A stretch of DNA of 64,000 nt. It comes from a bacterium BMS3Bbin09. Its GTDB lineage: Bacteria > Nitrospirota > Thermodesulfovibrionia > UBA6902. The position numbers and the translations under genes are program-made. Each line of letters opens with the position of its first letter. Position 1 is the first letter of the stretch. Below are positions 11,840 through 51,438 of this stretch, piece by piece. The stretch covers positions 23,479-87,478 of the forward strand of contig BDTS01000055.1 of the NCBI GenBank assembly GCA_002897915.1, given 5' to 3'. Below the pieces are notes generated by a model. That model was not told the origin of the DNA. It saw only the letters and a list, made by a program, of their open reading frames with translations, and ran no database searches.

Positions 11840-12721
11840 ATGATCAAGAAAGTAAGGAAGGCCGTATTTCCAGCAGCAGGACTCGGCACCAGGTTTTTGC
11901 CCGCCACAAAGGCCTCCCCAAAAGAGATGCTGCCTATTGTTGACAAGCCGATGATCCAGTATGCGGTTGAAGAGGCCGAAGCATGCAATATTAAAGAGTT
12001 CATTGTGATCACCGGTAAATCAAAACGGGCAATAGAAGACCATTTTGATCATGCATTCGAACTTGAGCATACCCTGAAAAGAAAAGGCAAGGAGGCAATA
12101 CTTAAGGAGATCCAGCGTCTATCCAAGCACCAGTTCGCGTATATTCGCCAGGGGGCCCCTCTCGGGCTCGGCCACGCGATACTATGTTCAAAAGCCTTTG
12201 TAAATGATGAGCCTTTTGCTGTAATATTGAGCGACGACATAATAGACCCTGACGATAACCTTTTAGGTGAAATGATAAAGATATCTAACAAATACCAGGC
12301 AACTGTCCTTGCGCTCCAAAGGATCCCGAAATCAGAGATACATCGTTACGGGGTAATAGCAGGCAAGGAAATAGATAAAAACATATATAAAATATCCGAT
12401 ATGGTAGAGAAACCAAAGGCATCAGACGCACCGTCCGACCTTGCAATAATTGGCAGATACATACTTACGCCGGACATATTCAACATACTCGAAAAGACCT
12501 TGCCCGGAAAAGGCGGTGAGATACAGCTGACCGATGCATTAAAGACCCAGTTAAAGCGGAAACCCGTCTACGGCTATCTTTTTGAAGGCAGACGGTACGA
12601 CGGCGGTGACAAGGTCGGTTATCTAAAGGCTACTGTAGAACTTGCCCTTAAGAACCCTTCCCTCAAGGATGAGTTCAGAGAATATCTTGAATCAGTAATG
12701 AAAAGGAGCAATAATGGCTGA
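11840..12721 (+). CDS. galU: UTP--glucose-1-phosphate uridylyltransferase
   Basis: Start taken at the internal Met ([25 protein letters not shown]...), which carries the GalU N-terminal signature; the longer ORF from 11687 is unlikely. Confidence 0.85.
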
Positions 12722-15179
12722 AATAGATACATTAGAAGATCGTGAAATAGAGATCCCTGCATCACTTCCGATCCTTCCTGTGAGGGACGTTGTCATATTT
12801 CCGTATATGATACTTCCCCTTTTTGTAGGAAGAGACATGTCGATCAAGGCGATCGAACACGCGGCCGGTGATAACAAACTGATCCTTCTCGTTTCACAAA
12901 AAGATATTAACGTAGAGAACCCGACCAACGATGACATCTATAAAGTAGGTACCGTTGGGACTATACTAAGAATGCTCAAACTCCCTGACGGGCGGCTGAA
13001 GATACTCGTACAGGGTCTTACAAAGGCAATGGTCACCAAGTTTTCACAGTCGGAACCATATTACATTGGAGAGATAGAAAAGATAGTGGACAGTGAAGAG
13101 ATAGACACGAGCATAGAGATCGAGGCCCTGATGCGGAACGTCAAGGAGCTTGTCGATAAATCTCTGGCGCTCGGGAAATCATTTCTGCCCGACATCATAG
13201 TGCTTATAGAAAATATCGAAGAACCGGGAAGACTCGCTGACCTGGTAGCATCGAATCTCGGGCTAAAAGCAGAACAGGCTCAGGAACTGCTCGAGGAGAG
13301 GGACCCATACGAAAGACTGAAGAAAATAAGCGATATACTTAGCCGGGAGGTCGAGCTGCTTCTGGTGCAGCAAAAGATACAGTCCGACGTTAAGGGCGAA
13401 ATAGACAAGACCCAGCGTGAGTACTTCCTCAGAGAACAATTGAAGGCGATCCAGAAAGAGCTCGGTGAGATAGACGAAAAGACCGAGGAGATCATGGACC
13501 TGCGTAAAAAAATAGAAAAGGTAAAGATGCCCGAAAAGGTCGAAAAAGAGGCGATCAAACAGATCAACCGCCTCGAAAAAATGCATCCTGACAGCGCTGA
13601 AGCTGGAACGATCAGGACATATGTAGACTGGCTGATAGAGTTACCGTGGTCAAAAAGCACCAAGGATAAACTGGACATAAAACGGGCCAAGAAGATACTT
13701 GACGAAGACCATTACGACCTCGAGAAGGTAAAAGAGCGTATCCTTGAATATCTCGGCGTAAGAAAGCTTAAAGACAAGATGAAGGGCCCCATCCTCTGCT
13801 TTGTGGGCCCCCCCGGCGTAGGCAAGACCTCGCTCGGGAAGTCCATTGCCAGGGCAATGGGAAGGGAGTTCTACAGAATGTCCCTCGGCGGAATGAGAGA
13901 CGAGGCCGAGATCAGAGGGCATAGAAGAACATATGTCGGCGCAATGCCCGGCAGGGTCATTCAGGGTATCAAGACATCTGGACAGAATAATCCGGTCTTT
14001 ATGCTTGACGAGGTGGACAAGATAGGTATGGACTTCAGGGGCGACCCCGCATCTGCCCTGCTCGAGGTGCTCGATCCGGAACAGAACTTTGCATTCGGGG
14101 ACCACTATCTGGGTGTTCCTTTTGACCTGAGCAATGTTATGTTCATAACAACCGCGAATCAGATGGACCCGATCCCCAGTCCCCTGAGGGACAGGATGGA
14201 AGTACTTTACCTCTCCGGTTACACAGCTGAAGAAAAGATCGGGATAGCAAAGAACTTTCTGATCCCGAAACAGCTGGATGAACACGGTATCACCGAAAAG
14301 AACATAAAGATAAACGACAACGCCCTGCTGCAGGTCATAACCAATTACACGATCGAGGCGGGCGTAAGAAACCTCGAGCGTGAGATAGCGCATCTCTGCC
14401 GCAAGGTAGCGAGAAAAACAGCCGAGGGTCATGTCAGAAAATATGTGATCGCGGAGAAAAATCTTTCGAAATATCTCGGAGTACCAAAATTCCTTCCCGA
14501 GGAAGAGATAAAGAAAGACGAGGTAGGACTCTCGACCGGTCTCGCATGGACAGAAGCAGGCGGAGACATTATTTATATCGAAGCTACAATAATGAAGGGC
14601 AAAGGCGGGCTGACCCTCACGGGACAGCTTGGAGATGTGATGCAAGAGTCCGCGCACGCGGCCAGAAGTTATATCCGCTCCAAGGCCAAGTTCCTCGGCA
14701 TAAGCAACTCCATGTTCTCAAACAATGATATACATATACACGTCCCTGCCGGAGCGATCCCAAAAGACGGTCCCTCAGCCGGCATTACCATAGCCACCGC
14801 CCTGGCCTCCGCCTTTTCAGGCAAGCCTGTTCGGAAAAGCATAGCCATGACCGGAGAGGTCACGCTGCGCGGGAACGTGCTGCCGATAGGAGGGCTGAAA
14901 GAAAAGACCCTTGCGGCAAAGAGAATGGGCATTAAGACGGTGATCATCCCGAAGAGAAATGAGAAGGATCTTGAAGACATTCCAAAATATATCAAGAAGG
15001 ATATGCAGTTCATACCGGTTGAGACCATGGACGAGGTACTTAAGTATGCCCTTAAGACCCCGTCCAAAGCTAAGACAAAGACTAAAGCCAAGGCAAAGCC
15101 AAAGACCAAAGCCAAAGCAAAACCTAAAGCTAAAACAAAGGCTAAACCAAAAGCTAAGGTCAAGAAGAAAAAGAAATAA
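12714..15179 (+). CDS. lon: ATP-dependent Lon protease (LonA) with a ~40-aa C-terminal K/A/P/T-repeat basic tail
   Basis: It has the LonA N-domain, a AAA+ module (GPPGVGKTS) and an S16 Ser-Lys protease domain (DGPSAGIT). The C-terminus ends with [37 protein letters not shown] (nt ~15060-15176). The ATG overlaps the galU stop (ATGGCTGA). Confidence 0.95.
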
Positions 15180-17677: not shown

Positions 17678-17821
17678 TCACTCTTTGTCCTTCAATAAGT
17701 CCTCAATATCTGACAGTCTTTCTTCTATGCCTTTCTGTTTTTTTGCGTTTACAAATAGGTACAGGGAAACTCCCAGCCATGCGATTGTGTAGGCCCCGAC
17801 AAGGTAACTCCAGTTTTCCAT
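17678..17821 (-). CDS. ccmD: Heme exporter protein CcmD
   Basis: A 47-aa single-TM peptide (MENWSYLVGAYTIAWLGVSLYLF...) immediately after ccmC. The longer ORF upstream of this Met is unlikely. Confidence 0.6.
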   Translation of the reverse strand: MENWSYLVGAYTIAWLGVSLYLFVNAKKQKGIEERLSDIEDLLKDKE

Positions 17822-17823
17822 TA

Positions 17824-18498
17824 TTAATCCTCCATCCTTTTCTTCACTATCTCTAACCTTTCTTCTATCCTTGCCAGTCTGAATCTGAAAAGGAAAAGAA
17901 AGATTGTGAGTAAAATAAAAGTAGCCATACTGAAAAACATGATATTTTTCATCACAGGGTCGAGTCCGCCGCCTTCCTGTGTGAGAAGGGGATGTATGGA
18001 CTTCCACCATTTCGTTGCATACCTGACAACGGGGATATCTATGTAACCGATTATCCCCAGTACTGCCGAGTATTGAGCTTTTTTGAATTTATCGGCAATC
18101 CCGCCTCTTAAAAGAAAGTATCCGATATAGATAAACCAGAGAATGAGCACTGTCAAAAGCCTCGGGTCCCATGTCCACCAGGCATTCCAGATGGGTCTTG
18201 CCCATATGGACCCTGTTGTTAAAACAAGGGTGGACATCAGCACACCGATCTCGGCGCACGTATATGCGGCTGTGTCCCATATGAATTTCTTCTTCCACAA
18301 AAAAAGGATGCTCGACACAAACACTCCTGTAAGCGCCAGGAATGCCCCGACTGCCAGCGATATATGGAGATAGAAAATCCTCTGCACCTCCCCCATTACT
18401 TTTTCAGTCGGCGCCACCATGAATATCAGATAGAAATTCAGAGGTATCATTACCAGAAGAAACAGAAAAATAATTGTTATGCTGCGATCAGTTTTCAT
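17824..18498 (-). CDS. ccmC: Heme exporter protein CcmC
   Basis: It has the WWD domain (WNAWWTWDPRL) and a conserved His, and is polytopic. Confidence 0.9.
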   Translation of the reverse strand: MKTDRSITIIFLFLLVMIPLNFYLIFMVAPTEKVMGEVQRIFYLHISLAVGAFLALTGVFVSSILFLWKKKFIWDTAAYTCAEIGVLMSTLVLTTGSIWARPIWNAWWTWDPRLLTVLILWFIYIGYFLLRGGIADKFKKAQYSAVLGIIGYIDIPVVRYATKWWKSIHPLLTQEGGGLDPVMKNIMFFSMATFILLTIFLFLFRFRLARIEERLEIVKKRMED

Positions 18499-18504
18499 CT
18501 TTTA

Positions 18505-19182
18505 TCAGTCCTCCATTAAATACCTGAAAAGAAGTAAGGAAACAGCGAGATACAGGACATCAAATACAGCGAGCATCTGTATCCATTTCCAAGTTCCGCC
18601 TGCATTGCCATTAAGAACCATACCCATGGAAGTTACTCCTCCGAGAATGACCGGAACTACTACGGGAAGATAGAGAAAAGGCAGAAGGACTTCACCATAC
18701 TTTGAGGCGGTTGTAAGAAAAGAAAAAAGCGTGCCTACAAGAGAAAATCCGATGGTGCCCAGAACAAGAGGGACAAGCAGTTGAGGGAGCAATCCTATAA
18801 TCTTTTCAAAATCAAATAATATTACAAAAGACAGCATTGTGAAGCATTCCATTATCAGGAGAAAAAGAAAATTACTTAATGCCTTCCCTATATAGAAGCT
18901 CTCCGGAGAGGCAGGTGAAAAGACTATGCTCAGGTACGCTTCCTCATCCCTTTCAGCCATTGAAGTCCTGCCCATCCCCAAAATTCCCGAGAACGCAAAA
19001 ACCACCCACAGAATTCCGGATGCCAAAGATGAAACACTGTCTTTATCAAGATCGAGGGCAATATTAAATATTACAAGGAGAAGCAATGAGAGAAAAAGCA
19101 TAAGGCTGAGAGACTCCCTGCCCCTTAACTCCAGCAGGATGTCTTTTCTCAGGATTGCAGCGGCATTCCCCATAAATCTCAT
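18505..19182 (-). CDS. ccmB: Heme exporter permease CcmB
   Basis: A 225-aa six-TM ABC-2 type permease positioned between ccmA and ccmC. Confidence 0.8.
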   Translation of the reverse strand: MRFMGNAAAILRKDILLELRGRESLSLMLFLSLLLLVIFNIALDLDKDSVSSLASGILWVVFAFSGILGMGRTSMAERDEEAYLSIVFSPASPESFYIGKALSNFLFLLIMECFTMLSFVILFDFEKIIGLLPQLLVPLVLGTIGFSLVGTLFSFLTTASKYGEVLLPFLYLPVVVPVILGGVTSMGMVLNGNAGGTWKWIQMLAVFDVLYLAVSLLLFRYLMED

Positions 19183-19883
19183 TTTCCGGTCTCCCCCATG
19201 GAATCAAACAGTCCGTAAATCTCCTCTATCTTTACTTCCTCTTTCTTTTTAATAAACAGGAACCTCCCCTTGTGCAGAAAGGCCACACGCGTTGCAAGTT
19301 CAAAGCCCTCCTCCACGAGGTGAGTGGAGAGAATAACTGTCTTGCCCTGACTTCTTATGTCCTTTATCTTTGAAAGGATGGATGACCTCCACCTGAGATC
19401 AAGTCCAGTAAATGGCTCATCCAGAATAAAGACCTTTGGATCTGTCATAAATCCCTTTGCAAGCGCAAGTCGCCTTTTCATTCCCTGTGAAAGTTCATTG
19501 ACCGGGTCTCTCCGCCGTTCCCACAGCCCGTGCTCTTTTAAAATATTCTTTACGGATTCTCCACGGTGGTTAATTGAAAAGAGCCTGCATATAAAATCCA
19601 TGTTCTCCCCCACTGTGAGTGCATTATACAGAGATGTCTTATGCCCGAGATAAAAGACCTCTTTTTTCATTTCACTTTCAGAATATTTTTTATTGTTATA
19701 AAATGCGTTTCCTTCTGTGGGAGACATGATGCCCGATATTATTTTAAGAAGGGTGGTCTTCCCTGCGCCGTTTGGTCCGAAGACTGTAATAGAATCTCGT
19801 TCGCCGATATCTATATCGATTCCGTTCAGGGCGGTTTTTGCATGATACTGTTTCTTTAAGCCCCTTATTTCTATGAGATTCAA
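19179..19883 (-). CDS. ccmA: Heme exporter ATP-binding protein CcmA
   Basis: It has an ABC ATPase Walker A (GPNGAGKTT), signature motif and Walker B, and sits at the canonical ccm position. Confidence 0.85.
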   Translation of the reverse strand: MNLIEIRGLKKQYHAKTALNGIDIDIGERDSITVFGPNGAGKTTLLKIISGIMSPTEGNAFYNNKKYSESEMKKEVFYLGHKTSLYNALTVGENMDFICRLFSINHRGESVKNILKEHGLWERRRDPVNELSQGMKRRLALAKGFMTDPKVFILDEPFTGLDLRWRSSILSKIKDIRSQGKTVILSTHLVEEGFELATRVAFLHKGRFLFIKKKEEVKIEEIYGLFDSMGETGK

Positions 19884-21007
19884 GACTTGAGCCTCTCTTC
19901 TATCTCTCTGCTTCTGCTTTCAAGGACATCCAGAAATGACTTGTAATAACCTCTTAAATCTTCCTCATCGGATTCGCCATCGAGTTTTTTTAGTAACTTG
20001 GCCAGGCGTCTCTTTTCCTTTACCAGTTTCCATCTATAAATTTTTTTCTTCATTACAACCAGACCTGTCCCGATCATAACAAAAGCCGCCGCGATGGAGG
20101 CCTGCCACAGACTGAAGAAACCTTTATGGAAAGGCGAGAGTATTTTAAATTTAACTCCTCTTAAATCATTGCCATCCCATGCATGGTAGTCCCCGTACAA
20201 ACCCTGCTGATCATTACTCTCTCCTCTATGCTGAAGGTTGGTAGATTCGACTTTCCAGTCACCCTTTTTCGTAAAAAAGAATGATATGTTTCTTGCAATA
20301 GAGCTGTAATCTTGATTATGAAGAGACATGTCAAACACGCCTGTATCGCTTTTAACGATATATTTGAATAAGATGGAGTTCTCTCCCGGCACGACCTTTT
20401 CGTGTAATGCTATCCCGCCTCCAAGGGTATACAGATCCTCGCGGTCTATGCCGTTGGCATTCATCAGAACATATCCGGCAGGCATGGGTATATACAGTGA
20501 TTTATTGATCTTAAGCTTATTATCATACTTTCCTACATATGTAAATTTGCTGTCATTTACAAAAGTAACTGAGTCATTTACTTTGAGCGATTTATCGTCA
20601 TATGGGGTTATTGTCAGGGACCTGCCGGTGATCTCTACACTATCGGCCTTATCGGTTATTTCATATACGTTAATATCGAGATTATATTTATCCTGCTTGT
20701 TTTTTATCTGAATTAACGGGGAATAATATGATACTCCCCTGTAATTCACCTCACTCATGATTGCTTTTGCGGCAGCGACTTCCACTTTACCGTCATAAAA
20801 TCCTGAAGTCCCTGTCCGGAACTCATGCTCCTTTAAAACTTTGACTCTCCCGTATGAATCCTGATCAACAGCGAGTATCTTAAATGGATAATCAGACAAC
20901 TTTTCGCCCTTTGTTGCATTGGTCAGGCTTACTCTTACAGATAACGCAAAGACGTTGGTTGCAGTTAATATGACTAAAAATGCTATGACAATAATTTTTT
21001 TCCGCAA
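19880..21007 (-). CDS. Hypothetical bitopic protein embedded in the ccm operon (signal peptide, ~290-aa periplasmic domain, one TM, charged coiled-coil cytoplasmic tail)
   Basis: No recognisable family. Start and stop overlap the flanking genes (translational coupling with orf121 and ccmA). Confidence 0.5.
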   Translation of the reverse strand: MRKKIIVIAFLVILTATNVFALSVRVSLTNATKGEKLSDYPFKILAVDQDSYGRVKVLKEHEFRTGTSGFYDGKVEVAAAKAIMSEVNYRGVSYYSPLIQIKNKQDKYNLDINVYEITDKADSVEITGRSLTITPYDDKSLKVNDSVTFVNDSKFTYVGKYDNKLKINKSLYIPMPAGYVLMNANGIDREDLYTLGGGIALHEKVVPGENSILFKYIVKSDTGVFDMSLHNQDYSSIARNISFFFTKKGDWKVESTNLQHRGESNDQQGLYGDYHAWDGNDLRGVKFKILSPFHKGFFSLWQASIAAAFVMIGTGLVVMKKKIYRWKLVKEKRRLAKLLKKLDGESDEEDLRGYYKSFLDVLESRSREIEERLKS

Positions 21008-21348
21008 ATTCTTAACACCTCTTTAGTGATACTCTTTTTCAGGCTTTTTGAAATCTCTTTTCCGGGCTTTAATGTAATCCCTTTCGAGAAATCTCTTTCT
21101 TTTTCCAGAGCAGGACGGGCCTGTCTTTTCAAAAATTCTCTTGTGACCATATAATCTTCTTTGGTCAGCTTGCCCATTTCATATTCAAAATCTACATCGG
21201 ATATTGCCCGGATACACTCCTTTTTCTCTTCCTGTATCACGGCAAAAGTTCCTCTGCTTACAAACGGCCAGTAACTCTCATTTATAAGAGGGACAAGGAT
21301 ATAGACGAGAAAGATCAGCATTAAAATAAAAAAAATAATAACCATCAC
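20983..21348 (-). CDS. Hypothetical small protein embedded in the ccm operon (N-terminal TM + ~95-aa cytoplasmic domain)
   Basis: It overlaps the ccmF stop (4 nt) and the orf375 start (25 nt). No family recognised. Confidence 0.45.
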   Translation of the reverse strand: MMVIIFFILMLIFLVYILVPLINESYWPFVSRGTFAVIQEEKKECIRAISDVDFEYEMGKLTKEDYMVTREFLKRQARPALEKERDFSKGITLKPGKEISKSLKKSITKEVLRICGKKLLS

Positions 21349-23357
21349 TCGATTTCCATTCCTTTCAGACGTAAAATAATTTCTTTTTCAAGAAGACCGA
21401 CATCTTCCTGTCTCCTTCTTTTAGGCAGTACAGCCCAGAAAGTACCGAACATGACCACTCCGGTACCTATCCATATCCATGAAATCAGCGGGTTTATCAC
21501 GACCGTTAACGTAATTGAACCACTCCTTCTGTCCCAGTCGCCGAGAATTAAATAAAGGTCTTCTGCTATACCGTCCATGATGGCGACTTCTGTCGTAGGC
21601 TGATTTTCTCTCTTCTTGTAAAACCTCTTCTCAGGCCTTAGATAACCCTTAAACGCTCCCGAATCATAAACTTCTATCCGGGCGCCGACTCCTTCAAAGT
21701 TCCACTTTGTCCTTGACGTCAGGTCCAGATACTTCAGACGATAATTTTTTATGGTGACTTCCTGTCCTATGTTTAATACAGCATCTTCTTTATATTGGAA
21801 ATATCCATAACCGGCAAGCCCCAGTACGATAAAAACCATACCGATATGGATGATGAATCCCCCGTATTTTCTTCTGTTTCTGGTAACAAGAGTCCAGAAT
21901 GATAAGAGCCACCCTTTTTCACTGTTCTTTACGCCGGCCTTCGTGCCGAGATAAAATTCTCTCAGCATTGTTGTAATGACAAATACTGAGAAGGAATAGA
22001 AGAAGGCGGGCATAAAGCTCCTGATACCTGAAATATACAGAACCGGCAGTGACAGGGCTGTTAATGAAAAGGGGAGTAGACAATTTATTAATATCCCCTT
22101 TGAAGATGTCTTTCTCCATCCAAGAAGCGGACATACACCCATCAGCAATATGAGCAAGAGAAATAAAGGCGCGTTAATCGTATTGAAGAAAGGCGGCCCG
22201 ACTGATATTTTTACGCCCTTTACAGCCTCTGAGATCAGAGGAAAGATTGTGCCCCAGAATGTGGCGAAACATATCCCTACAAGTATTATATTATTGTACA
22301 GGAAAGAGCTTTCTCTCGAAAGAAAGGCTTCGATCCTCGGGTTTTGTTCTTTCAGTTTTTCATATCTGGTCCATATGAGATATATCCCTGCAGCCAGGAC
22401 CAGGATTAAAAACCCCAGAAAGACAAAACCAACAGGCGACTGTCCAAAGGCATGGACCGAGGAGATAATGCCGCTTCTTGTAATAAAGGTGCCGAAAATA
22501 CATAATGAGAATGTCAGCAAAATCAGTGAGACATTCCATATCTTGAGCATTCGCCTCTTCTCCTGGATTATTACTGAGTGAAGAAAGGCCGTTGCAGTCA
22601 GCCAGGGCATAAAGGAAGAGTTTTCAACAGGGTCCCATCCCCAGACACCTCCCCACCCAAGCTCTTTATAAGCCCACCAGCCCCCGAAGATTATCCCTAG
22701 GGTCAGGCATACCCATGAAAACAGGATCCAGGTCCTTGTCTTTTTTATCCACCATTCTCCTAAATCTTCCATCACAAGGGCGGCCATGGCGAAGGCAAAA
22801 GGAACGGTAAATCCGACATAGCCCAGATAAAGCGTGGGGGGATGAAAGACCATGCCGGGGTTTTGCAGTAAAGGATTAAGACCATTGCCGTCAGCAGGGA
22901 ACACGGCCATCAATTCAAAAGGAGGGGTCACAAAGTTGACAAGCACAAGAAAGAACATCGATGTCAGGTTTAGAAAAAAAAGCGTATATGGAAGATATAG
23001 TGAATTGACTCTGTGTTCGTCCCGTTGCACCGTAATAAACGTAAAGAGAGAAAGAAGCCATCCCCAGAACAGGAGGGAGCCTTTCTGCCCTGCCCACAAT
23101 CCTGTGATCTTGTAAAAGATCGGGAGGGCCTTTTCGGAATAGGATGCAACGTATTCAATTCTGAAGTCATCCATGATAAAAGCGTATACAAGAAAGGAAC
23201 AGGCAAATGTCATGAAGGCAAAAATACCTTTTGTCCCCCTGTATGACATCTCAATAAACCTTCCATCCTTTTTTCTGATACCGATTATCAGCCCTATGAG
23301 AACAAGAATTGAGAGAATTAATGAAAACAGCAATGAATATTTTCCAAAATCAATCAT
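21345..23357 (-). CDS. ccmF: Cytochrome c-type biogenesis protein CcmF (heme lyase)
   Basis: 670 aa, polytopic, with a WWD-like tryptophan-rich motif (WGGVWGWDPVENSSFMPWL) and conserved His residues. Confidence 0.9.
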   Translation of the reverse strand: MIDFGKYSLLFSLILSILVLIGLIIGIRKKDGRFIEMSYRGTKGIFAFMTFACSFLVYAFIMDDFRIEYVASYSEKALPIFYKITGLWAGQKGSLLFWGWLLSLFTFITVQRDEHRVNSLYLPYTLFFLNLTSMFFLVLVNFVTPPFELMAVFPADGNGLNPLLQNPGMVFHPPTLYLGYVGFTVPFAFAMAALVMEDLGEWWIKKTRTWILFSWVCLTLGIIFGGWWAYKELGWGGVWGWDPVENSSFMPWLTATAFLHSVIIQEKRRMLKIWNVSLILLTFSLCIFGTFITRSGIISSVHAFGQSPVGFVFLGFLILVLAAGIYLIWTRYEKLKEQNPRIEAFLSRESSFLYNNIILVGICFATFWGTIFPLISEAVKGVKISVGPPFFNTINAPLFLLLILLMGVCPLLGWRKTSSKGILINCLLPFSLTALSLPVLYISGIRSFMPAFFYSFSVFVITTMLREFYLGTKAGVKNSEKGWLLSFWTLVTRNRRKYGGFIIHIGMVFIVLGLAGYGYFQYKEDAVLNIGQEVTIKNYRLKYLDLTSRTKWNFEGVGARIEVYDSGAFKGYLRPEKRFYKKRENQPTTEVAIMDGIAEDLYLILGDWDRRSGSITLTVVINPLISWIWIGTGVVMFGTFWAVLPKRRRQEDVGLLEKEIILRLKGMEIE

Positions 23358-23773
23358 GCTTCGTCCTCTTTCTTTTCATACTTTGAAGGACATTTTACAA
23401 GAAGCTTATTTGCCTTAAATATTCTTTTTTCCATATTATAGAAGCCTTCGGCAACAAGGGTAACGCCTTCCTGTTCGAGCATGTCCGGCGGGGGGCCTTT
23501 ATATATAACATTAAGCCTGGGAGAATCCTCAATATCTTTATCTTTTAATGTGAAGTTAAGCGTCAGGGCTGCAAGGTCATAATTTACACTGCCGGGTACA
23601 ATCTCACCGTTGACCCTGACTTTCCCGTTTCCCATTTCATCAAGCTTTTCAAAAAGCTCCGATACCTCAAGATAATACATACTGCCTTCCTTCATACCGA
23701 GAAATACGAGATAACTAAAAGCCGCCATGATTAACAGCACTGAGAAAACAATAGTGATCTGCCTGCCCTTCAT
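23354..23773 (-). CDS. ccmE: Heme chaperone CcmE, cysteine-variant (CxxxY instead of HxxxY)
   Basis: It has an N-terminal TM and an OB-fold region (VRVNGEIVPGSV). The C-terminal LVKCPSKYEK aligns to the canonical LAKHDENYTP heme-binding motif with Cys in place of His. Confidence 0.8.
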   Translation of the reverse strand: MKGRQITIVFSVLLIMAAFSYLVFLGMKEGSMYYLEVSELFEKLDEMGNGKVRVNGEIVPGSVNYDLAALTLNFTLKDKDIEDSPRLNVIYKGPPPDMLEQEGVTLVAEGFYNMEKRIFKANKLLVKCPSKYEKKEDEA

Positions 23774-24336
23774 TTTTCAACCTCCGTATCCGGCTCTTCC
23801 GTCAGCCCTCTTATCAGGTCCTGTCTCTCTTGGTCGGTCCAGTCACCCGGGCCTATTTCAACAAAGGCTACTTTGCCTTTTTTGTCAATTATGAAAGACT
23901 CCGGCACTCCCGTGGTACCGTAAAGCAGTTGAATAGAGCCGGATGTATCAATCAGCGCGGGGAATGTGTAACGATGCATCTTCATATACGGCGCTACCGC
24001 CTTTTCGCCTGCGGCGTCTATGCTTACAGCAAGGATTTCAAAGTCGTCTCCTCTGAACTTTTCATATAATCTCTGCATGGTTGGCAGTTCTGCTTTGCAT
24101 GATGGACACCAGGTAGCCCAAACGTTTACAAATACAACCTTCTTTCCATAGAAATCGGACAATGAAACTTTTTTCCCTGAAAGATCAGCAAAAGTAAAAT
24201 CCCTTGCCTGCTCCCCGATTGAAGGACGGGGCTTTTTCTTTCCGCTGTCTTCCTGCTCTCCTATTAATACAATCACAGCCGCTGCGATTATAATAATGAT
24301 TGGCAGCCAGATTAAGAGCTTCAGCAGGCGCTTCAT
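23770..24336 (-). CDS. ccmG: Thiol:disulfide oxidoreductase CcmG/DsbE (TlpA-like thioredoxin)
   Basis: Signal-anchor plus the active site WATWCPSCK. Confidence 0.85.
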   Translation of the reverse strand: MKRLLKLLIWLPIIIIIAAAVIVLIGEQEDSGKKKPRPSIGEQARDFTFADLSGKKVSLSDFYGKKVVFVNVWATWCPSCKAELPTMQRLYEKFRGDDFEILAVSIDAAGEKAVAPYMKMHRYTFPALIDTSGSIQLLYGTTGVPESFIIDKKGKVAFVEIGPGDWTDQERQDLIRGLTEEPDTEVEK

Positions 24337-24354
24337 AATAAATTTCCGTTCATT

Positions 24355-24885
24355 TTATTCATCTTCTCTGAACCTGCGCACCTCATCTTCCAGAAGAGCG
24401 TCCATTTCAGGATCAACATCATCAGGCACGGTCTCTTTTATACTGATCTTCTTACGCCACAGAATGAGAAAAATTCCAACCACCAGAAACAGGTCTAACA
24501 CCAGAAAATAAGGGAACCACCATGCAATGAAATAAAAACCTTTTTTCGACGGCTGCGTCAGAATTTTCGGGCCGTAAACGTCTTCAAAATAAGCAAGAAT
24601 CGATTCTTTACTTTCTCCCTTTGCAAGCCTGTCCTTAATAAGCTCCTTCATCTGGTCTGCCTGCGCGGAAGGGCAGTTGGTCAGCGTATAAACGTAATCG
24701 CATCCGGGACTCATGATCTCATCTGCAACTTCTTCAAGTTCCATACGGGATACTTCTCTCCCATAGGATGTATTTGGGCTTATAAAAATAAGCAAAAGCA
24801 AAAAACAAATTACTTTGTGCTGTATAATTCTTTTATGAATTTTCAGATCCTGTTTACACATAAAGTTCTCAACCCTTCCTGACAC
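24355..24885 (-). CDS. ccmH: Cytochrome c-type biogenesis protein CcmH/NrfF family
   Basis: It has the conserved GESKESILAYFEDVYGPKIL block and a C-terminal TM. The Cys pair is spaced CDYVYTLTNC (C-x8-C) rather than the canonical LRCxxC. Confidence 0.65.
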   Translation of the reverse strand: MSGRVENFMCKQDLKIHKRIIQHKVICFLLLLIFISPNTSYGREVSRMELEEVADEIMSPGCDYVYTLTNCPSAQADQMKELIKDRLAKGESKESILAYFEDVYGPKILTQPSKKGFYFIAWWFPYFLVLDLFLVVGIFLILWRKKISIKETVPDDVDPEMDALLEDEVRRFREDE

Positions 24886-25613
24886 TAAATAATAACAAAG
24901 TTAGGGAACAGCGCAACGAACCGTGTTATCATATTTGTCATAAGCATAATACCGAATACTATAAGGAGCAGCCCGCTTACAACCATGATCACTCTCATAT
25001 GCTTCATAAGTTTCTTTGAGTGAGTCAGGAACGTATTCATTGCGAGCGATGACAAAAGAAAGGGTATTCCAAGACCAATGGAATAGACCGAAAGGAGTTT
25101 AATCCCGTAAGTCACCGAACCCGACGAACCTGCATACATGAGTATGGAACCGAGTATCGGACCTATGCAGGGCGTCCATCCCGCCCCGAATGTCACTCCT
25201 ACTGCAAATGTCCCGACGTATCCCGCCGGTTTGAACTGCATATGGACTTTCTTTTCTTTCATTAGAAAGTCCAGCTTTAGAAAGCCCGCAACAAAGAGAC
25301 CAAAGATAATTATCAATGCCCCTCCAATGATCCTGATATGCTCCTGGTACATAAAGAAAAACTTTCCGACAACAGAGGATGACGCTCCAAGCAGAATAAA
25401 GATAAAAGAAAATCCAAGAATAAAAACAAGAGAGTTAGTCAGGGTCAGAAACCTTACCCTTGGCCTGTCAGCATTGCCGGTAAGGTCCTCGAAAGAAACA
25501 CCTGTTATGTATGAGACATAAGAGGGAAGCAATGGCAACACACAGGGAGAAAGAAAAGACAGTACCCCTGCGAAAAAAGCTAATGAATAGGATACTTCAG
25601 CATTAAAAGACAT
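24885..25613 (-). CDS. ccdA: Cytochrome c biogenesis thiol-disulfide transporter CcdA (DsbD core)
   Basis: Six TM helices with paired Cys (SPCVLPLLP, TPCIGPILG). Confidence 0.85.
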   Translation of the reverse strand: MSFNAEVSYSLAFFAGVLSFLSPCVLPLLPSYVSYITGVSFEDLTGNADRPRVRFLTLTNSLVFILGFSFIFILLGASSSVVGKFFFMYQEHIRIIGGALIIIFGLFVAGFLKLDFLMKEKKVHMQFKPAGYVGTFAVGVTFGAGWTPCIGPILGSILMYAGSSGSVTYGIKLLSVYSIGLGIPFLLSSLAMNTFLTHSKKLMKHMRVIMVVSGLLLIVFGIMLMTNMITRFVALFPNFVII

Positions 25614-25795: not shown

Positions 25796-26218
25796 TCAAA
25801 TAATGAGGATAATTTTTTTGAGAGGCAAAAAAACTGAACTTAATAAAGTGCTTGGTTGCAGCGGACTATTCATCTTTTGAATTAGTGGTAAAGTTGCTTC
25901 TGGCAAAGCATGATATGATACCTCCTCTAAATGGGAATTTATTCGTTGGAGTGAAATGTCATTCTCTATGCCGGAACTGGTCAGGATTGGAATATCCAGA
26001 CAATCATTATGAATATTATTTTCCTGATTAAAGCTTAATACTCTATTATCTTCAGAAGGAAGGTCAGAAAATACTGAAGTATTATGATTGTTTTCAATAG
26101 CAATATGACCTTCATTTTCAACACACAATACAAATCCGTATAACGAACTTTGACTTAATGCTGTGTAGATTATGAGTAAAAATACAAGCGTTGATTTTAT
26201 CTTGAAATTACTAATCAT
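25796..26218 (-). CDS. Hypothetical small secreted protein (inside the 799-bp repeat-flanked insert)
   Basis: 140 aa with an N-terminal hydrophobic signal-like segment. The context is AT-rich and no family was recognised. Confidence 0.35.
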   Translation of the reverse strand: MISNFKIKSTLVFLLIIYTALSQSSLYGFVLCVENEGHIAIENNHNTSVFSDLPSEDNRVLSFNQENNIHNDCLDIPILTSSGIENDISLQRINSHLEEVSYHALPEATLPLIQKMNSPLQPSTLLSSVFLPLKKIILII

Positions 26219-26389: not shown

Positions 26390-26432
26390 GATACTTCAGC
26401 ATTAAAAGACATAACTATAAACTCCTCGCCTT
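26390..26432. repeat. Direct repeat copy 2: encodes the last 6 codons and stop of the cadA-like ATPase and, on the other strand, a truncated ccdA-like start (MSFNAEVSYPLALLFPF*)
   Basis: It is identical to 25591-25633, 799 bp away. Confidence 0.9.
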
Positions 26433-28379
26433 TACTCTCGTTAGCCTCATGGAATTTAAAATAACCGCAAGGCTTAATCCCATATCTCCCACAGCCACCG
26501 CAACCCATAGATTTATCAGTCCCAGCAAAGCCAGGATTGTAAGACTCCCTTTGATAAGTATCGAAAGAGATACATTCTGCTTTACAACGCGCATTGTCTT
26601 TCTGCTGAGATACATCAGGTAGTCGATCTTGCTCAGGTCATCATGCATCAGGGCTATGTCTGCTGTTTCTATTGCCACGTCTGTGCCGATGGCGCCCATG
26701 GCTATTCCTACATTGGCTACAGCAAGAGCTGGAGCATCGTTTACACCATCGCCCACCATTGCCACGCTGCCGAACTTTTTAACGAGTTTTTCAACGACCT
26801 TTACCTTGTCCTCAGGCAAAAGTTCCGCATGATATTCATCTATTCCGACTTTGCCGGCCAGAGAACCAGCAACTTTTTTGTTGTCGCCTGTAATCATTGC
26901 AGTCTTAATATGAAGCTTCTTAAGATCTGATATAACTTTAGGGGCCTTTTCTCTCAGGACATCTCCGAGGGCGATTGCTCCAATTGCCATATTTTCATTG
27001 GCTACAAATACAACAGTCTTTCCTTCACTTTCAAGCTGCGATATTTCTCCGGGAATCTCCATAGATAAGCCATTAAATAGGCTCCTTGCTCCTGCGTAAT
27101 ACTTTTGACCTCCGATAAGGGCTTCCAGCCCCCTGCCTTTGACTGCTCTGAACCTGCTGATTTCTTTAAGATGAATATTTTCCGCCCCGGCTTTCTTCAG
27201 GATTGCCTTTGCAATAGGATGTTCTGAACGTGACTCCAGGGTAGCAGTCATAGAGAGCACTTCTTCACTGGAATGACCGTTAAAGCCGATAATGTCCGTA
27301 ACTTCCAGCTTTCCTTTCGTTAAAGTACCGGTTTTGTCAAAGGCAATGACTTTGACCTTACTAAGCTCTTCAAGGTAAGAGGCCCCTTTAATTAACACAC
27401 CATGTCTTGCCGAGCTGGTCAGTGCCGATACCATGGCAACCGGCGTTGATATGGCCAGTGCACAGGGACATGAAATGACTAAAAGCACCAGGGAGCGGTA
27501 AAACCATATTTCCCATGAATATCCCAAAATAAATGTCGGAACAAGAAATGCTCCAAATGCAAGAATGATCACTACAGGAGTATAGTAGCGGGCAAATTTA
27601 TCGATGAACTTTTCGGTCTCTGATTTTTTTCTCTCAGCCTCTTCAACGAGTTTGACAATCCTCGAAAGTACAGTATCTTCGGACTTTCTGGTAACACTCA
27701 CCTCCAAATAGCCCTCTTCATTCATGGTGCCTGCATACACTTCATCCCCCACTTCCTTTTCAACCGGAAGCGATTCTCCTGTAATAGGCGACTCATTGAT
27801 GGATGAATGGCCGGTTAAAACCTTTCCGTCCAGCGGTATTTTTTCTCCGGGACGGATTACTGTAATATCTCCGATTATTATTTCATGTACGTGGAGCTCG
27901 ATTTCCTTCCCGCCCCTCTTCACTTTTGCTGTTTCGGGAGCCAACTTCAGCAGCTGGCTTATTGATTTCTTTGCTTTATCGGCCGCATACTCTTCCAGGG
28001 TTTCAGCGACAAAAAACAGGAAGACAACTGCAGCTCCTTCCTCACCGTGTCCGATGAAAAATGAGCCGAAAGCCGCAATACCTATAAGACAATTAATGTC
28101 CAGCCGCCGTTTTAGAATTGAACGCCCGGCCTTCTTCAGGATGTCTCTTCCTGAAACGGCAATGACGGACATGAATACAATCTGTGCAGGAATATTCAGG
28201 GCCGTGAAAAATTCAAGCATTAACCCGGATATCAAAAGCGCTGCCGCTATCCCGCCGGCAGTCAATTGCTGGCGCATCCAGAGCGGCGACTTTTCTTCCG
28301 CATTGCCACCGCCGCAGGAACAGGCAGATTCCTCCCGGCAGGAGTCGTTGTTCATTATTTCGAGCTTTGTGTTTTGCAT
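26415..28379 (-). CDS. Heavy-metal-translocating P1B-type ATPase (Cd/Zn/Pb CadA/ZntA-like)
   Basis: It has DKTGTLT, TGDN, GDGVNDAPAL and a transmembrane SCPCALAIS (CPC) motif. The N-terminus is Cys-rich (CREESACSCGGG) and there is no canonical GMTCxxC HMA domain. It lies downstream of a CadC-like repressor gene. Confidence 0.9.
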   Translation of the reverse strand: MQNTKLEIMNNDSCREESACSCGGGNAEEKSPLWMRQQLTAGGIAAALLISGLMLEFFTALNIPAQIVFMSVIAVSGRDILKKAGRSILKRRLDINCLIGIAAFGSFFIGHGEEGAAVVFLFFVAETLEEYAADKAKKSISQLLKLAPETAKVKRGGKEIELHVHEIIIGDITVIRPGEKIPLDGKVLTGHSSINESPITGESLPVEKEVGDEVYAGTMNEEGYLEVSVTRKSEDTVLSRIVKLVEEAERKKSETEKFIDKFARYYTPVVIILAFGAFLVPTFILGYSWEIWFYRSLVLLVISCPCALAISTPVAMVSALTSSARHGVLIKGASYLEELSKVKVIAFDKTGTLTKGKLEVTDIIGFNGHSSEEVLSMTATLESRSEHPIAKAILKKAGAENIHLKEISRFRAVKGRGLEALIGGQKYYAGARSLFNGLSMEIPGEISQLESEGKTVVFVANENMAIGAIALGDVLREKAPKVISDLKKLHIKTAMITGDNKKVAGSLAGKVGIDEYHAELLPEDKVKVVEKLVKKFGSVAMVGDGVNDAPALAVANVGIAMGAIGTDVAIETADIALMHDDLSKIDYLMYLSRKTMRVVKQNVSLSILIKGSLTILALLGLINLWVAVAVGDMGLSLAVILNSMRLTRVKARSL

Positions 28380-28480: not shown

Positions 28481-28843
28481 CTATTCCCTTACGTGCTTTA
28501 GCCCCTGGTCAAAAAGCCTTTTTATGTGCTTGTCATCCAGTGAGTAATAGACCCTCTTAGACTCTTTTCTGAATTTAACGAGCCTCAGGTTCCGCAGGAT
28601 TCTCAACTGGTGGGAAATAGCGGAAATACTGCCTCCGAGGATGCTTGCTATGTCGCATACGCAAAGTTCTTCTTTAGAAAGGGCATAGATTATCTTTAGC
28701 CTTGAAGAGTCGGCCAGCACACCAAATATCTCCGATAAGCTATAAACGTCTTTATCAGAGAGCATTACTTTTTTTACTGCTTTGACCTTTGCTTTATCTA
28801 CAGTCTTGACTTCACATACATCCTGCTGCTTTTTTGCGGCCAT
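28481..28843 (-). CDS. ArsR/SmtB-family metalloregulator, CadC-like
   Basis: It has the ELCVCDIASILG..SHQLRILR wHTH with the alpha3 CVC metal site, and is close to S. aureus CadC over the DNA-binding core. The start is set at ATG (MAAKKQQ) preceded by the AAGGAGG RBS; the TTG-extended ORF would overlap the operator. Confidence 0.8.
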   Translation of the reverse strand: MAAKKQQDVCEVKTVDKAKVKAVKKVMLSDKDVYSLSEIFGVLADSSRLKIIYALSKEELCVCDIASILGGSISAISHQLRILRNLRLVKFRKESKRVYYSLDDKHIKRLFDQGLKHVRE

Positions 28844-28858
28844 CAGAAGACCTCCTTG

Positions 28859-28882
28859 ATATTTGAACAATTGTTCAAGTAT
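28859..28882. promoter_or_regulatory. 12-12 inverted repeat ATATTTGAACAA|TTGTTCAAGTAT, a candidate ArsR/SmtB (CadC-type) operator
   Basis: 23 of 24 positions are palindromic, with a TGAACA-TGTTCA core typical of ArsR/SmtB operators. It lies 16 bp upstream of the cadC-like ATG. Confidence 0.6.
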
Positions 28883-29023: not shown

Positions 29024-29677
29024 ATGAAAATGAATTTCAAAACAATTTCTATAACATTAATGTCGTTAACGCTGTTGTTAATGTCCGTGTCCGTACAGGC
29101 AGAGAAAGTACCCGGCATTGTGGGTGTATACGACACTCTGCCCGGAGAAAAGTTCAAGTTTGACGGAAAGACGGTTGAAATCGTAGAGTTTATGAGCTTC
29201 TACTGCCACACCTGTTATAACTTTGAGAAATCAATCCCTGTCATCAAAGGAAACTTCCCAAAAAAGATCAAATGGAAGATCATTCCAATTTACTGGGGGG
29301 ATCACGGTTCTCCAAAGCCAGGAGAGGCATATCTTATAGCCGAAGAAATGGGCAAAGGCGAGGCAATGAAAAAAGCTCTCTTTGATGCCCAAATGGTTCA
29401 AAAAATAAATATTGGTGACATCAATGTCCTGGAATCCATAGGCAAGGAAGTCGGTCTCGGATCTGATTTTGGCAAAAAACTCAGGGCCGGAGATAAAACT
29501 GGAGAAACACAACAGGCCCTGGATATGGCTAAAAAGATCGGGATCAGTGAGACCCCCACAATAGTCATTGCCGGCAATATTAAAACAGATCCACATGCAA
29601 TGGATCATGATCTTGATATGTATAGAGACAATATTCTCATGATAATAAAGAGCATAGTTAAATCAGAACACCGGTAA
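29024..29677 (+). CDS. DsbA-like periplasmic thiol:disulfide oxidoreductase (CxxC = CHTC)
   Basis: It has a signal peptide, a thioredoxin-fold active site (FYCHTCYNFE) and a DsbA-like helical insertion. Confidence 0.6.
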   Translation: MKMNFKTISITLMSLTLLLMSVSVQAEKVPGIVGVYDTLPGEKFKFDGKTVEIVEFMSFYCHTCYNFEKSIPVIKGNFPKKIKWKIIPIYWGDHGSPKPGEAYLIAEEMGKGEAMKKALFDAQMVQKINIGDINVLESIGKEVGLGSDFGKKLRAGDKTGETQQALDMAKKIGISETPTIVIAGNIKTDPHAMDHDLDMYRDNILMIIKSIVKSEHR

Positions 29678-29785: not shown

Positions 29786-30688
29786 ATGAAAAAACTTTTC
29801 TATTCTGTAATTTTATTATCCTTCACAGCAGCTTTACTTACAGGTTGCCTTGGGGGCAAAGATTCAGACAGTCCCGTTATAGCAAAAGTCAATAACGATG
29901 TGGTTACACAGGAGGATTTTCTCAAGGAGATCAGCCGTGTGCCTGAATGGGCAAGAGGACAGTTCGAGGGGCAGGAAGGCAAAGATAAGTTCCTTGATGA
30001 GATCATCAAAAGAGAACTGATCTACCAGAATGCACTGGATATGAAACTGGATAACGACGAAGAATATATTGCAAAGGTTGAAGAATTCAAAAAAATGACC
30101 CTGATCTCGCTTCTCCTGCAGAAAGAAGTCGAAGAAAAGGCAACTGTATCCGAGGCTGAAATAAAAGACTTTTTTGATAAAAATGAGGAGAAGTTCAGGA
30201 TCGGTACAGAGATCAAGGCAAGCCATATATTGGTAGAAACAGAAAAAAAGGCAAAAGACATCATCAACAAGATCAACAACGGAGAAAAGTTCGCCAAGCT
30301 GGCCAAAAAATATTCAAAAGACAAGGGCTCTGCAGAAAAAGGCGGGGATCTGGGCTACTTCGGCAGGGGCAAGATGGTCCCTGAATTCGAACGCGCGGCA
30401 CTGAGCCTTAAAAAAGGAGAATTAAGCGCTCCTGTAAAAACTCGTTTCGGATTTCATATTATAAAGCTCATTGATATAAAGGAAGGGGAACCGGCCAATT
30501 TTGAGCAGTCAAAGGGATCTATCCAGAAACAGCTCATCTCCTTAAAACGGAAGCAGCTCTTCGATACATACATTGAAAGCCTCAAAAGCACGGGCAAAAT
30601 AGAAAAGAACGAGGAATTACTTAAGTCCATAGTGCTTCCCTGGGAAAAAGCGGTAGCACCGGCACCTGAGCCGGCGCCAGCTAAATAA
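29786..30688 (+). CDS. Parvulin-type peptidyl-prolyl cis-trans isomerase lipoprotein (PrsA/SurA-like)
   Basis: It has a lipobox (LLTGCLGG) and a PpiC domain (SHILV...GGDLGYFGRGKMVPEFE...FGFHIIKL). Confidence 0.8.
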   Translation: MKKLFYSVILLSFTAALLTGCLGGKDSDSPVIAKVNNDVVTQEDFLKEISRVPEWARGQFEGQEGKDKFLDEIIKRELIYQNALDMKLDNDEEYIAKVEEFKKMTLISLLLQKEVEEKATVSEAEIKDFFDKNEEKFRIGTEIKASHILVETEKKAKDIINKINNGEKFAKLAKKYSKDKGSAEKGGDLGYFGRGKMVPEFERAALSLKKGELSAPVKTRFGFHIIKLIDIKEGEPANFEQSKGSIQKQLISLKRKQLFDTYIESLKSTGKIEKNEELLKSIVLPWEKAVAPAPEPAPAK

Positions 30689-37091: not shown

Positions 37092-37143
37092 AATTACCTC
37101 TTTTTAGAGTTTCAATATATTAACGCAACAACCATCATAAACC

Positions 37144-38304
37144 CTAATTTGCCTTTGCTTTGAGTTTTACCACAAACTCTTTCTTCTCTTCACTAAAATC
37201 ATCCTTCCTCATGAAGGTCGGGATATCAAGATAATCCTCGCTGCCCTTCGTATCCTTTGAGAGCACCCGTGCCGAGCCTTTCAGTGTATTCACATCCCTT
37301 GACGGCCTCCATTTATCGTATGAAGGCATGACCGCGCACGGTTTTTCCTCGAAGCCAGTAGCAATTACGGTTATTATTATCTTATCGTCAAGGTCGGTGT
37401 CGATCGCCGAACCGAAGATTATCTCGGCGTCTTCATGCGCGGCATCGCGGATAAGGCTGGCCGCCTCGTGTACCTCATGAAAGGATAGGGAGGAACCCCC
37501 ATTGATGTTTATCAATACTCCTTTTGCTCCATCAATGGAGGTTTCCTCCAGCAGGGGGCTTCTTATAGCCATCTTGGCCGCATTCTTTGCGCGATTCTCT
37601 CCCTCCGCGCTGCCTATACCCATCAGCGCTTTTCCGCTGTCAGTGAGTATTGTCTTTATATCCGCGAAATCCTGATTGATAAGACCAGGAACGAGTATCA
37701 GGTCGGATATGCCTTTTACCGCCTGCCTCAGAACATCGTTCGCAAGGTTCAGCGCCTGCAGCCATGGGGTATTCTTTTCCGTTATATCCAGCAGCCTGTT
37801 GTTGTGAATAATTATTATCGAGTCAACATGCTTTTTAAGTTCTTTTATTCCCTGCTCGGCGTTTCTGCCCCTCTTGTTCCCTTCGAACAGAAAAGGTCTG
37901 GTAACGACTGCTGTTGTAAGGATCCCGAGGGCCCTGGCTGTTTCCGCAACGACCGGGGCCGCCCCTGTACCTGTTCCTCCGCCCATGCCGGCTGTAACAA
38001 ATACCATATCCGCGCCTTTAATGGCCTCTTCGATTATGTCCCTGTCATCTATCGCGGCCTGCCGTCCTGTCTCGGGGTTCGCTCCGGCACCGAGTCCTTT
38101 TGTCAGTGAACTGCCTATCTGGATACGCTGGTGCGCAAGTGAGGATTCAAGCGCCTGGGCGTCAGTATTAACGGCAATGAACTCAACACCCTGCAGACTG
38201 GACGCTATCATGCTGTTTACAGCATTGCTTCCGCCTCCGCCGACCCCCACTATCTTGATCTTTGCGGCCGTGTTCTGCATCTCTTCCATCTCAAATATCT
38301 TCAT
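37144..38304 (-). CDS. ftsZ: Cell division GTPase FtsZ
   Basis: Tubulin signature GGGTGTG, FtsZ N-core and C-terminal tail. Confidence 0.97.
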
Positions 38305-38369
38305 ACTCCCCCCTTTTCAAAATTTACTATTATCTGTGATCTATTTTTGTTGTATTTATATTTCATCTC

Positions 38370-39629: not shown

Positions 39630-39631
39630 TA

Positions 39632-43698: not shown

Positions 43699-43742
43699 GT
43701 TTAAATCCGTTCTCCGTTAATACCCGACGGCCAATAATCCTT

Positions 43743-47421: not shown

Positions 47422-47463
47422 TATTTTCTCTGCCACCTGTATCATTTATTTAACTTAATACTT

Positions 47464-49912: not shown

Positions 49913-49915
49913 GAT

Positions 49916-51415: not shown

Positions 51416-51438
51416 TTAACCCGTTAAGGCGGTCCTCC

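Follow-up and report, generated by a model that had tools for sequence, protein, structure and literature searches.

The window analysed here is a stretch of 64,000 nucleotides of contig BDTS01000055.1 (GenBank assembly GCA_002897915.1, positions 23,479 to 87,478 of the forward strand) from the Nitrospirota bacterium BMS3Bbin09. Between positions 17678 and 25613, its minus strand carries eleven closely packed open reading frames (ORFs) of a cytochrome c maturation (ccm) cluster, in the order ccdA-ccmH-ccmG-ccmE-ccmF-orf121-orf375-ccmA-ccmB-ccmC-ccmD. The main subject of this work is the pair orf121 and orf375, located between ccmF and ccmA, which we propose to encode the two pieces of an unusual CcmI protein. 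Pfam and NCBIfam profile searches of the window ORFs, by which the families were assigned, and the positions of the minus-strand ORFs confirmed the eleven-gene order that had been read from the sequence only. The features of the cluster are as follows:

24885..25613, minus strand: ccdA, thiol-reductant transporter of 242 aa (PF02683 DsbD_TM, E 1.2e-18)
24355..24885, minus strand: ccmH variant (PF03918, E 2.2e-12, 46.9 bits against a cutoff of 25)
23770..24336, minus strand: ccmG, ResA/DsbE-type thioredoxin-like protein with a WCPSC motif (AhpC-TSA/Redoxin, E 8e-28; NF002854 ResA, E 1e-34; TIGR00385 dsbE, E 2e-20)
23354..23773, minus strand: ccmE, Cys-type heme chaperone with the motif VKCPSKY (PF03100, E 6.9e-21)
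21345..23357, minus strand: ccmF, heme lyase of 670 aa (CcmF_C, E 9e-64; Cytochrom_C_asm, E 2e-38; TIGR00353, E 2e-141)
20983..21348, minus strand: orf121, similar to the N-terminal module of CcmI (by its family profile and by fusions; no hidden Markov model, HMM, match of its own)
20983..21007, minus strand: overlap of 25 nt between orf121 and orf375, read from the sequence
19880..21007, minus strand: orf375, predicted beta-sandwich periplasmic protein (TTG start 25 nt inside orf121; AlphaFold2 model)
19179..19883, minus strand: ccmA, ATP-binding cassette (ABC) ATPase (TIGR01189, 134.8 bits against a cutoff of 131.6; NF010061, E 4e-42)
18505..19182, minus strand: ccmB (PF03379, E 6e-27)
17824..18498, minus strand: ccmC (TIGR01191, E 5e-38; PF01578, E 5e-27)
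17678..17821, minus strand: putative ccmD, 47 aa starting with MENWSY, with one transmembrane (TM) segment and a charged tail (by size, topology, and position)

The intergenic distances at the ten junctions from ccdA to ccmD are -1, +18, -4, -4, -4, -25, -4, -4, +6, and +2 nt. The sequence-only reading had described overlaps of 4-25 nt between almost every pair of genes. The tight packing is real, but this wording is a mild overstatement, as only six of the ten junctions are overlaps of 4 or 25 nt.

Sixteen distinct related loci of the Nitrospirota type were obtained via orf375, a genome scan, or CcmE. They are located nearly all in genomes of Nitrospirota or in Thermodesulfovibrio-like metagenome-assembled genomes and include one in the complete 2.25-Mb Nitrospiraceae genome CP070737.1. 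As far as the contigs reach, the eleven-gene order recurs in all 16 loci, and the succession of ccmF, an ORF of ~120 aa, an ORF of ~375 aa, and ccmA-B-C-D is kept in every one of them. The arrangement of the ccm genes with orf121 and orf375 is therefore not due to chance. ccdA leads the cluster in the 12 related loci whose contig extends there; the exceptions are L015, with ccdA upstream in the opposite orientation, and L001, L016, and L017, in which other genes are present between ccdA and ccmH. Amino acid identities across the related loci range from 31 to 72 % for orf375, from 41 to 79 % for orf121, and from 62 to 91 % for CcmF.

The orf121 protein consists of a TM segment (TM1, residues ~2-24), a helical hairpin carrying the sequence AISDvDFEYEMGKLTkEDY, and a C-terminal helix that ends in EVLRICGK. 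Its AlphaFold2 model (predicted local distance difference test, pLDDT, of 78) contains a TM helix (residues 2-32), the helical hairpin, and a short C-terminal helix. The hairpin is probably located in the cytoplasm, since basic residues come after the TM segment. A word-index search gave 14 homologues, and 578 cluster representatives at E<=1e-3 were retrieved when the orf121 alignment was used for an exhaustive HMM search. These are mostly proteins of 90-200 aa with an N-terminal TM segment and the motif L.DLDFDY..GKLS.EDY..LR in a helical hairpin, followed in many members by a C-terminal zinc ribbon. When the best 150 of the 578 representatives were each scanned individually against NCBIfam, 94 of them matched TIGR03142, the N-terminal domain of CcmI, with a best E value of 2.4e-7. 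This was by far the commonest NCBIfam match among the 150, and its register was consistent in the matches inspected. The earlier statement that neither of the inserted genes matches a known Ccm component is thus not supported for orf121 when its family is considered. Only generic helical and zinc-ribbon matches came from Foldseek with the modelled orf121 structure and from a profile search of the PDB based on the family alignment. One or two cytoplasmic zinc ribbons are present in P0172, P0175, and P0178 and in many of the small members of the family; a vestige of such a ribbon may survive in orf121 as the invariant C115 of EVLRICGK. In P0296 (locus L027, 599-2080), which is encoded directly after ccmH, a CcmI-like N-terminal module is fused to a beta-propeller of the BNR/Sortilin type.

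The orf375 protein has no Pfam or NCBIfam model of its own. All of its 23 word-index homologues are unnamed, and the homologues of both orf121 and orf375 are listed in the databases as "hypothetical protein". One database entry that is identical to orf375 is attributed to a Nitrospirae metagenome-assembled genome. Family and PDB sequence searches with orf375 and orf121 yielded only weak matches to Lamin-tail and phage decorator proteins, which were judged to be noise. The AlphaFold2 model of orf375 (pLDDT 79.9) begins with a hydrophobic helix, which is followed by all-beta structure between residues 21 and 290, a TM/long helix from 298 to 345, and helices up to residue 374. It predicts two beta-sandwich domains (residues ~21-115 and ~120-290), a TM segment at ~298-320, and a charged cytoplasmic helical tail. 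Both AlphaFold2 models agree with the topologies that had been assigned from the sequence, namely a TM segment followed by a cytoplasmic domain in orf121 and a signal peptide, a beta-rich periplasmic domain, a TM segment, and a charged tail in orf375. Since the N-terminal helix of orf375 ends in a cleavage-type motif, V-F-A/A-F-A, before L-S and lacks a lipobox cysteine, the N-terminus is read as a Sec signal peptide or a signal anchor. No Cys, His, or Met residue is invariant across the orf375 family, and a role in redox chemistry or as a heme ligand is therefore disfavoured. The periplasmic folds are generic beta sandwiches of the binding type, with Foldseek matches that include pilin/CnaB-type and transthyretin-like domains. 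Taken together, the residue pattern and the modelled fold would point to a chaperone or an adaptor and less to a protein that takes part in redox chemistry or binds heme.

Three proteins, P0170 (502 aa), P0174 (479 aa), and P0179 (686 aa), combine an orf121-like N-terminus and an orf375-like body in a single polypeptide. Their alignment with the orf375 family using hhalign gave E values of 8e-38, 5e-13, and 2e-7, respectively, and the motifs YRG/YQG, VYExTD, TYVG/TYIG, and LPxG are common to the fusions and orf375. These natural fusions show orf121 and orf375 to be, as far as can be judged from their sequences, two halves of one protein type with a CcmI-like architecture: a TM segment, a cytoplasmic hairpin, a second TM segment, and a periplasmic domain. 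In P0174 and P0179, a C-terminal TM-plus-hairpin unit repeats the N-terminal module (domain E values of 1.8e-11 and 2.8e-9, respectively). Split and fused forms both exist outside the clade of the window, as seen from the split pair in L025 and the fused P0170, P0174, and P0179. The junction in P0170, EVLRLKKEMALLVLFLL, aligns with the end of the window orf121, EVLRICGKK, together with the start of orf375, MRKKIIVIAFLV, so that at the junction the fused and split states differ by a frame difference of one base. A Shine-Dalgarno-like GAGGTG, formed by the codons of the invariant residues E110 and V111 of orf121, is located 8 nt 5' of the TTG start codon of orf375, and both the overlap of the two genes and the GAGGTG are conserved in the clade. 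With the TTG lying 25 nt inside orf121 behind this sequence, translation of orf375 would be coupled to that of orf121.

All six distant members of the orf121 family that were looked up are encoded in a ccm context. The genes for P0172, P0174, and P0296 are each located directly 3' of ccmH, and that for P0170 (locus L019) lies between ccmF and ccmA. P0179 is found in the arrangement ccmH-ccmG-x-P0179, and P0175 (L025) in the arrangement ccmE(CPSKY)-ccmF-ccmH-P0175, followed by a separate 373-aa homologue of orf375 (E 2.8e-10). The position next to ccmF or ccmH that is characteristic of a CcmI gene is found here as well: the pair adjoins ccmF in the window and in the 16 related loci, and the distant members adjoin ccmH or ccmF. 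The homologues examined were found only inside ccm clusters, contrary to the refuting condition set out earlier, by which they would not co-occur with ccm genes elsewhere. The suggestion that orf121 and orf375 are bona fide maturation factors therefore stands as far as their genuine association with ccm clusters is concerned; the function in maturation itself is what we infer from it.

CcmI (CycH) is the equivalent of the C-terminal part of E. coli CcmH. We consider it probable that orf121 and orf375 constitute a two-piece CcmI without tetratricopeptide repeats (TPRs), serving as an accessory subunit of the CcmF/CcmH heme-ligation complex in the System I* apparatus of a Nitrospirota (Thermodesulfovibrionia-like) bacterium. 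The general plan of CcmI comprises two TM helices with a cytoplasmic region between them and a large periplasmic domain (PMC3884852). The protein is the apocytochrome-binding partner of CcmFH (PMC12285233) and, in System I*, enhances maturation without being essential (PMC3601427). In the proposed scheme, orf121 would provide the CcmI-type N-terminal module, consisting of TM1 with its N-terminus outside and the cytoplasmic helical hairpin. The N-terminus of orf375, which resembles a Sec signal peptide here, would be the counterpart of the second TM segment in the fused relatives. The pair of beta sandwiches would stand in for the TPR domain and be followed by a further TM segment and a cytoplasmic helical tail. 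By analogy with CcmI, the pair would dock to CcmF/CcmH through its membrane and cytoplasmic parts, and the periplasmic beta domain would bind unfolded apocytochrome c. It could thereby make the CXXCH sites accessible to CcmH/CcmG, which would reduce them, and to CcmF, which would transfer heme to them from holo-CcmE, in this way affecting maturation. No description of a split or non-TPR CcmI was found in the literature, many subscription papers being outside the search. The operon, a Cys-type CcmE, and the presence of CcmH are of kinds that are already known; the novelty lies in the CcmI-like module, whose periplasmic domains would be exchangeable, and in its split form.

Several observations weigh against this interpretation. 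The defining feature of CcmI is missing: no TPR match was found in orf121 or orf375 using Pfam, which bears out the earlier remark that orf375, all-beta from residue 21 to 290, is not the TPR protein CcmI. The additional C-terminal TM segment and cytoplasmic tail of orf375 are foreign to canonical CcmI; reading this tail as a repeat of the orf121 hairpin was considered and rejected, as no repeat is detectable in the orf375 clade and the equivalence is one of position alone. The window orf121 has no Pfam or NCBIfam match of its own, TIGR03142 not being reached even at E<=10. Its link to TIGR03142 is a transitive one, made at the level of sequence families and mostly below the curated cutoff. 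The matches inspected individually all fall short of this cutoff, P0174 for instance reaching 24.3 bits where 29.3 are required. Proteins with a TM segment and charged helices are, moreover, prone to give weak spurious matches. The location of the pair between ccmF and ccmA, taken alone, is compatible with membership of either the ligation module or the heme-delivery module CcmABCD. In the fused-form locus L019, a small TPR protein shows a weak match to TPR_CcmH_CycH, and the beta-domain protein may act alongside a TPR factor instead of replacing one. A search of the 64-kb window with the L019 TPR gene as the query revealed no TPR CcmI; such a gene could be present elsewhere in the genome. The small TPR proteins of L019 and L012 are membrane anchored and encoded 5' of ccdA.

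Four alternatives were ranked, in order of decreasing probability, as a substrate-specific adaptor, an accessory of heme delivery, a frameshift fusion, and an unrelated envelope protein. The first of these is unlikely, although it is the best placed. It holds that the pair serves particular (multi)heme cytochromes, in the way that NrfG serves NrfA or that CcmI of Shewanella is reported to act at the non-canonical site of NrfA, with a general TPR CcmI encoded elsewhere. Such substrate-specific behaviour of CcmI/NrfG has been documented (PMC12285233). The periplasmic domains carried by the conserved module differ between lineages, beta sandwiches in some and the BNR/Sortilin-type propeller in P0296, the sequence of orf375 changes much more rapidly than those of the core Ccm proteins, and the L019 cluster also holds the small TPR protein. 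Against this, the pair is part of the sole ccm operon seen in the window and does not lie beside a structural gene for a cytochrome, and neither a second ccmF/H set nor a TPR gene is visible there.

Less probable still, and in our opinion rather doubtful, is an accessory function in the heme-delivery module CcmABCD-CcmE, for instance in the loading or release of holo-CcmE with Cys-linked heme, a step that is chemically unlike the one involving His-linked heme. In the window clade, the pair is located immediately 5' of ccmA, with an overlap of 4 nt, and CcmE is of the CPSKY type in every locus with a visible ccmE. The distant homologues, in contrast, occur directly after ccmH or in ccmH-ccmG clusters with no ccmABC called alongside, the N-terminal module matches the CcmI model, and conserved residues of the heme-ligand type are absent.

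It is very improbable that orf121 and orf375 are partly or wholly made as one polypeptide by -1 frameshifting or transcriptional slippage. The overlap of the two genes contains the run A_AAA_AAA in phase with orf121, a -1 shift at this heptamer leads into the orf375 frame, and the predicted product resembles the P0170 junction (EVLRICGKK-IIVIAFLV versus EVLRLKKEMALLVLFLL). The A7 run is present, however, in only 8 of the 17 loci of the clade and is probably incidental, as it is explained by the Lys-Lys codons that both reading frames have here and by the AT-rich genome; orf375 also has a conserved start of its own with GAGGTG 8 nt upstream. It is hardly credible that an envelope protein without relation to maturation, such as an adhesin, a pilin-like protein, or a lipoprotein, ended up as orf375 in the operon by accident. 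The protein matches no known family and has the pilin/CnaB-type and transthyretin-like folds that are frequent in surface proteins, but its position is strictly kept in 16 of 16 loci down to 31 % identity, it is fused to a CcmI-like module in three lineages, six of six distant members are ccm-linked, and it has a C-terminal TM segment with a cytoplasmic tail. The absence of a lipobox Cys and the synteny exclude the stray lipoprotein that had been named earlier as an example of a refuting outcome.

The CcmE protein of the window carries the sequence VKCPSKYEKK in its C-terminal end region. In a pairwise alignment with E. coli CcmE, C128 is placed on H130 and Y132 on Y134, so that the earlier identification of CPSKY in place of the canonical H-x3-Y motif was borne out, and the protein belongs to the Cys-type CcmE known from "System I*". 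CPSKY is kept in every related locus that carries ccmE. A check of the co-occurrence with CxxxY-type ccmE, as had been proposed, showed that every cluster with a homologue of the pair and a visible ccmE has CPSKY. The same sequence is present in 25 of 36 bacterial genomes with a Cys-type CcmE (PMC3601427). The work on Cys-type CcmE of Desulfovibrio and archaea (Allen 2006, Goddard 2010) is summarised in the same review (PMC3601427), according to which a lack of CcmH is no hallmark of the System I* variant. As the review finds CcmH in about one third of the bacteria with a Cys-type CcmE (PMC3601427), the combination of the two proteins encountered here is not new.

The LRCxxC redox motif is absent from the CcmH protein of the window, although the PF03918 domain scores above its cutoff. 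In its place the sequence IMSPGCDYVYTLTNCPS is found, with the arrangement S-P-G-C62-x8-C71. When aligned with LRC43PKC46 of E. coli CcmH, C43 is replaced by Ser, C46 is retained as C62, and an extra Cys, C71, is present nine positions further on, in accordance with the C-x8-C spacing reported before. The motif IMSPGC[DN]YxYTL..CPS is conserved in every related locus with ccmH. A distal Cys about nine residues past the position of CxxC is common to every non-proteobacterial CcmH that was sampled (the window, L021, L022, L023, and L025). CcmH of L022 has kept CxxC in addition to the distal Cys (CPLCQGVTLSDCP). The loss of Cys differs by lineage: the Nitrospirota proteins have SxxC...C, and that of L023 has C...C with the second Cys of CxxC gone. 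This pattern suggests that the distal Cys may be a functional part of the redox site in this CcmH subfamily and could form an alternative redox pair.

The overlap of 1 nt between ccdA and ccmH requires an upstream GTG start for the latter gene. Since the gene calls in relatives are of 143-168 aa, this GTG is probably not the real start, and translation of ccmH more likely begins at the ATG at 24861 or further downstream. The 47-aa ORF at the end of the cluster is taken as a putative CcmD on the basis of its size, its single TM segment, and its position 3' of ccmC, which is kept in all loci; the name is given on these features only, as the HMM search against Pfam yielded no match. Scans for promoters and terminators gave signal at background level only.

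Upstream of ccdA, the window contains an ORF of 140 aa without assignment (25796-26218), a heavy-metal P-type ATPase gene (26415-28379), and a gene for an ArsR regulator (28481-28870), beyond which a DsbA-like protein (29024-29677) and a SurA-like peptidyl-prolyl isomerase (29786-30688) are encoded. A P-type ATPase gene adjoins the ccm cluster in L005 and L025 too. In L016-L019, a gene for a PCYCGC-domain protein is found near the cluster, and in L016 and L017 a large Fer4_5 protein is encoded next to it; neither is present in the window. Elsewhere in the window, the Lon protease encoded at 12714-15179 on the plus strand ends in a tail of ~40 residues with a high content of Lys, Ala, Pro, and Thr, similar to histone H1-like DNA-binding tails. 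A long run of co-directional minus-strand ORFs at 35400-53268, with a strongly negative GC skew (36000-54000), is probably a large conserved operon.

To our knowledge, the recognition of apocytochromes and their hand-over to CcmF/H is the least understood step of System I and has been studied only with the proteobacterial TPR-type CcmI/NrfG. If a CcmI-like module is paired with different periplasmic domains in Nitrospirota, in Thermodesulfobacteriota-like organisms, and in others, the TM segment and cytoplasmic hairpin would probably be the part that couples to CcmF/H, and the periplasmic part would be an exchangeable device for substrate binding. Many genomes that are now read as lacking CcmI may then possess one. 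The finding would thus offer a testable handle on apocytochrome delivery. The window provides a System I* operon that is compact, fully linked, and equipped with CcmH and CcmG; it is suited to heterologous testing, as has been done for Desulfovibrio, and the CcmH proteins form a natural set of variants in which either Cys of CxxC has been lost and the distal Cys kept. A bolder extension, which we regard as speculative and unlikely, is a widespread and so far unrecognised class of CcmI-type proteins in which a conserved N-terminal membrane/hairpin module, often with zinc ribbons, is joined to interchangeable non-TPR periplasmic domains. In its boldest form, these proteins would capture apocytochromes emerging from Sec for CcmF/H in a manner similar to ribophorin I, with the hairpins coupling the lyase to cytoplasmic partners.

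Four known systems can be compared with the proteins described above. CcmH of the window shares with the PF03918/LRCxxC proteins a signal peptide, a periplasmic helical domain, a TM segment, and a charged tail. It differs from them in that the first Cys of CxxC is a Ser and an extra Cys follows nine residues after the retained one. The cluster resembles System I* of Desulfovibrio and archaea in the replacement of the heme-binding His of CcmE by Cys in CPSKY and in belonging to an anaerobic host outside the classical alpha- and gamma-proteobacterial models. The operon of the window has CcmH, CcmG, CcdA, and a putative CcmD, whereas the Desulfovibrio system that was tested is without CcmH and CcmG.

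In comparison with CcmI/CycH, the pair orf121/orf375 has two beta sandwiches and no TPR, is split over two overlapping genes in the window clade, and possesses an extra C-terminal TM segment with a cytoplasmic helical tail; its relatives often carry cytoplasmic zinc ribbons, and the window protein on its own falls below every curated CcmI model. The two have in common a gene in the ccm cluster beside ccmF or ccmH, an N-terminal TM segment with a cytoplasmic helical region that is related to TIGR03142 at the family level, and the order of a TM segment, a cytoplasmic loop, a TM segment, and a large periplasmic domain. Both are presumed to be partners of CcmF/H that handle the apocytochrome. The best Foldseek matches of orf375 were to subunit 1 of oligosaccharyltransferase (OST), ribophorin I, with E values of 2e-8 to 2e-7, which is taken as a structural analogue only. 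The two proteins share tandem beta sandwiches on the luminal or periplasmic side, one C-terminal TM segment, and a cytosolic helical part and, if the analogy extends to function, each would be an accessory subunit of a membrane enzyme acting on unfolded, freshly translocated polypeptides.

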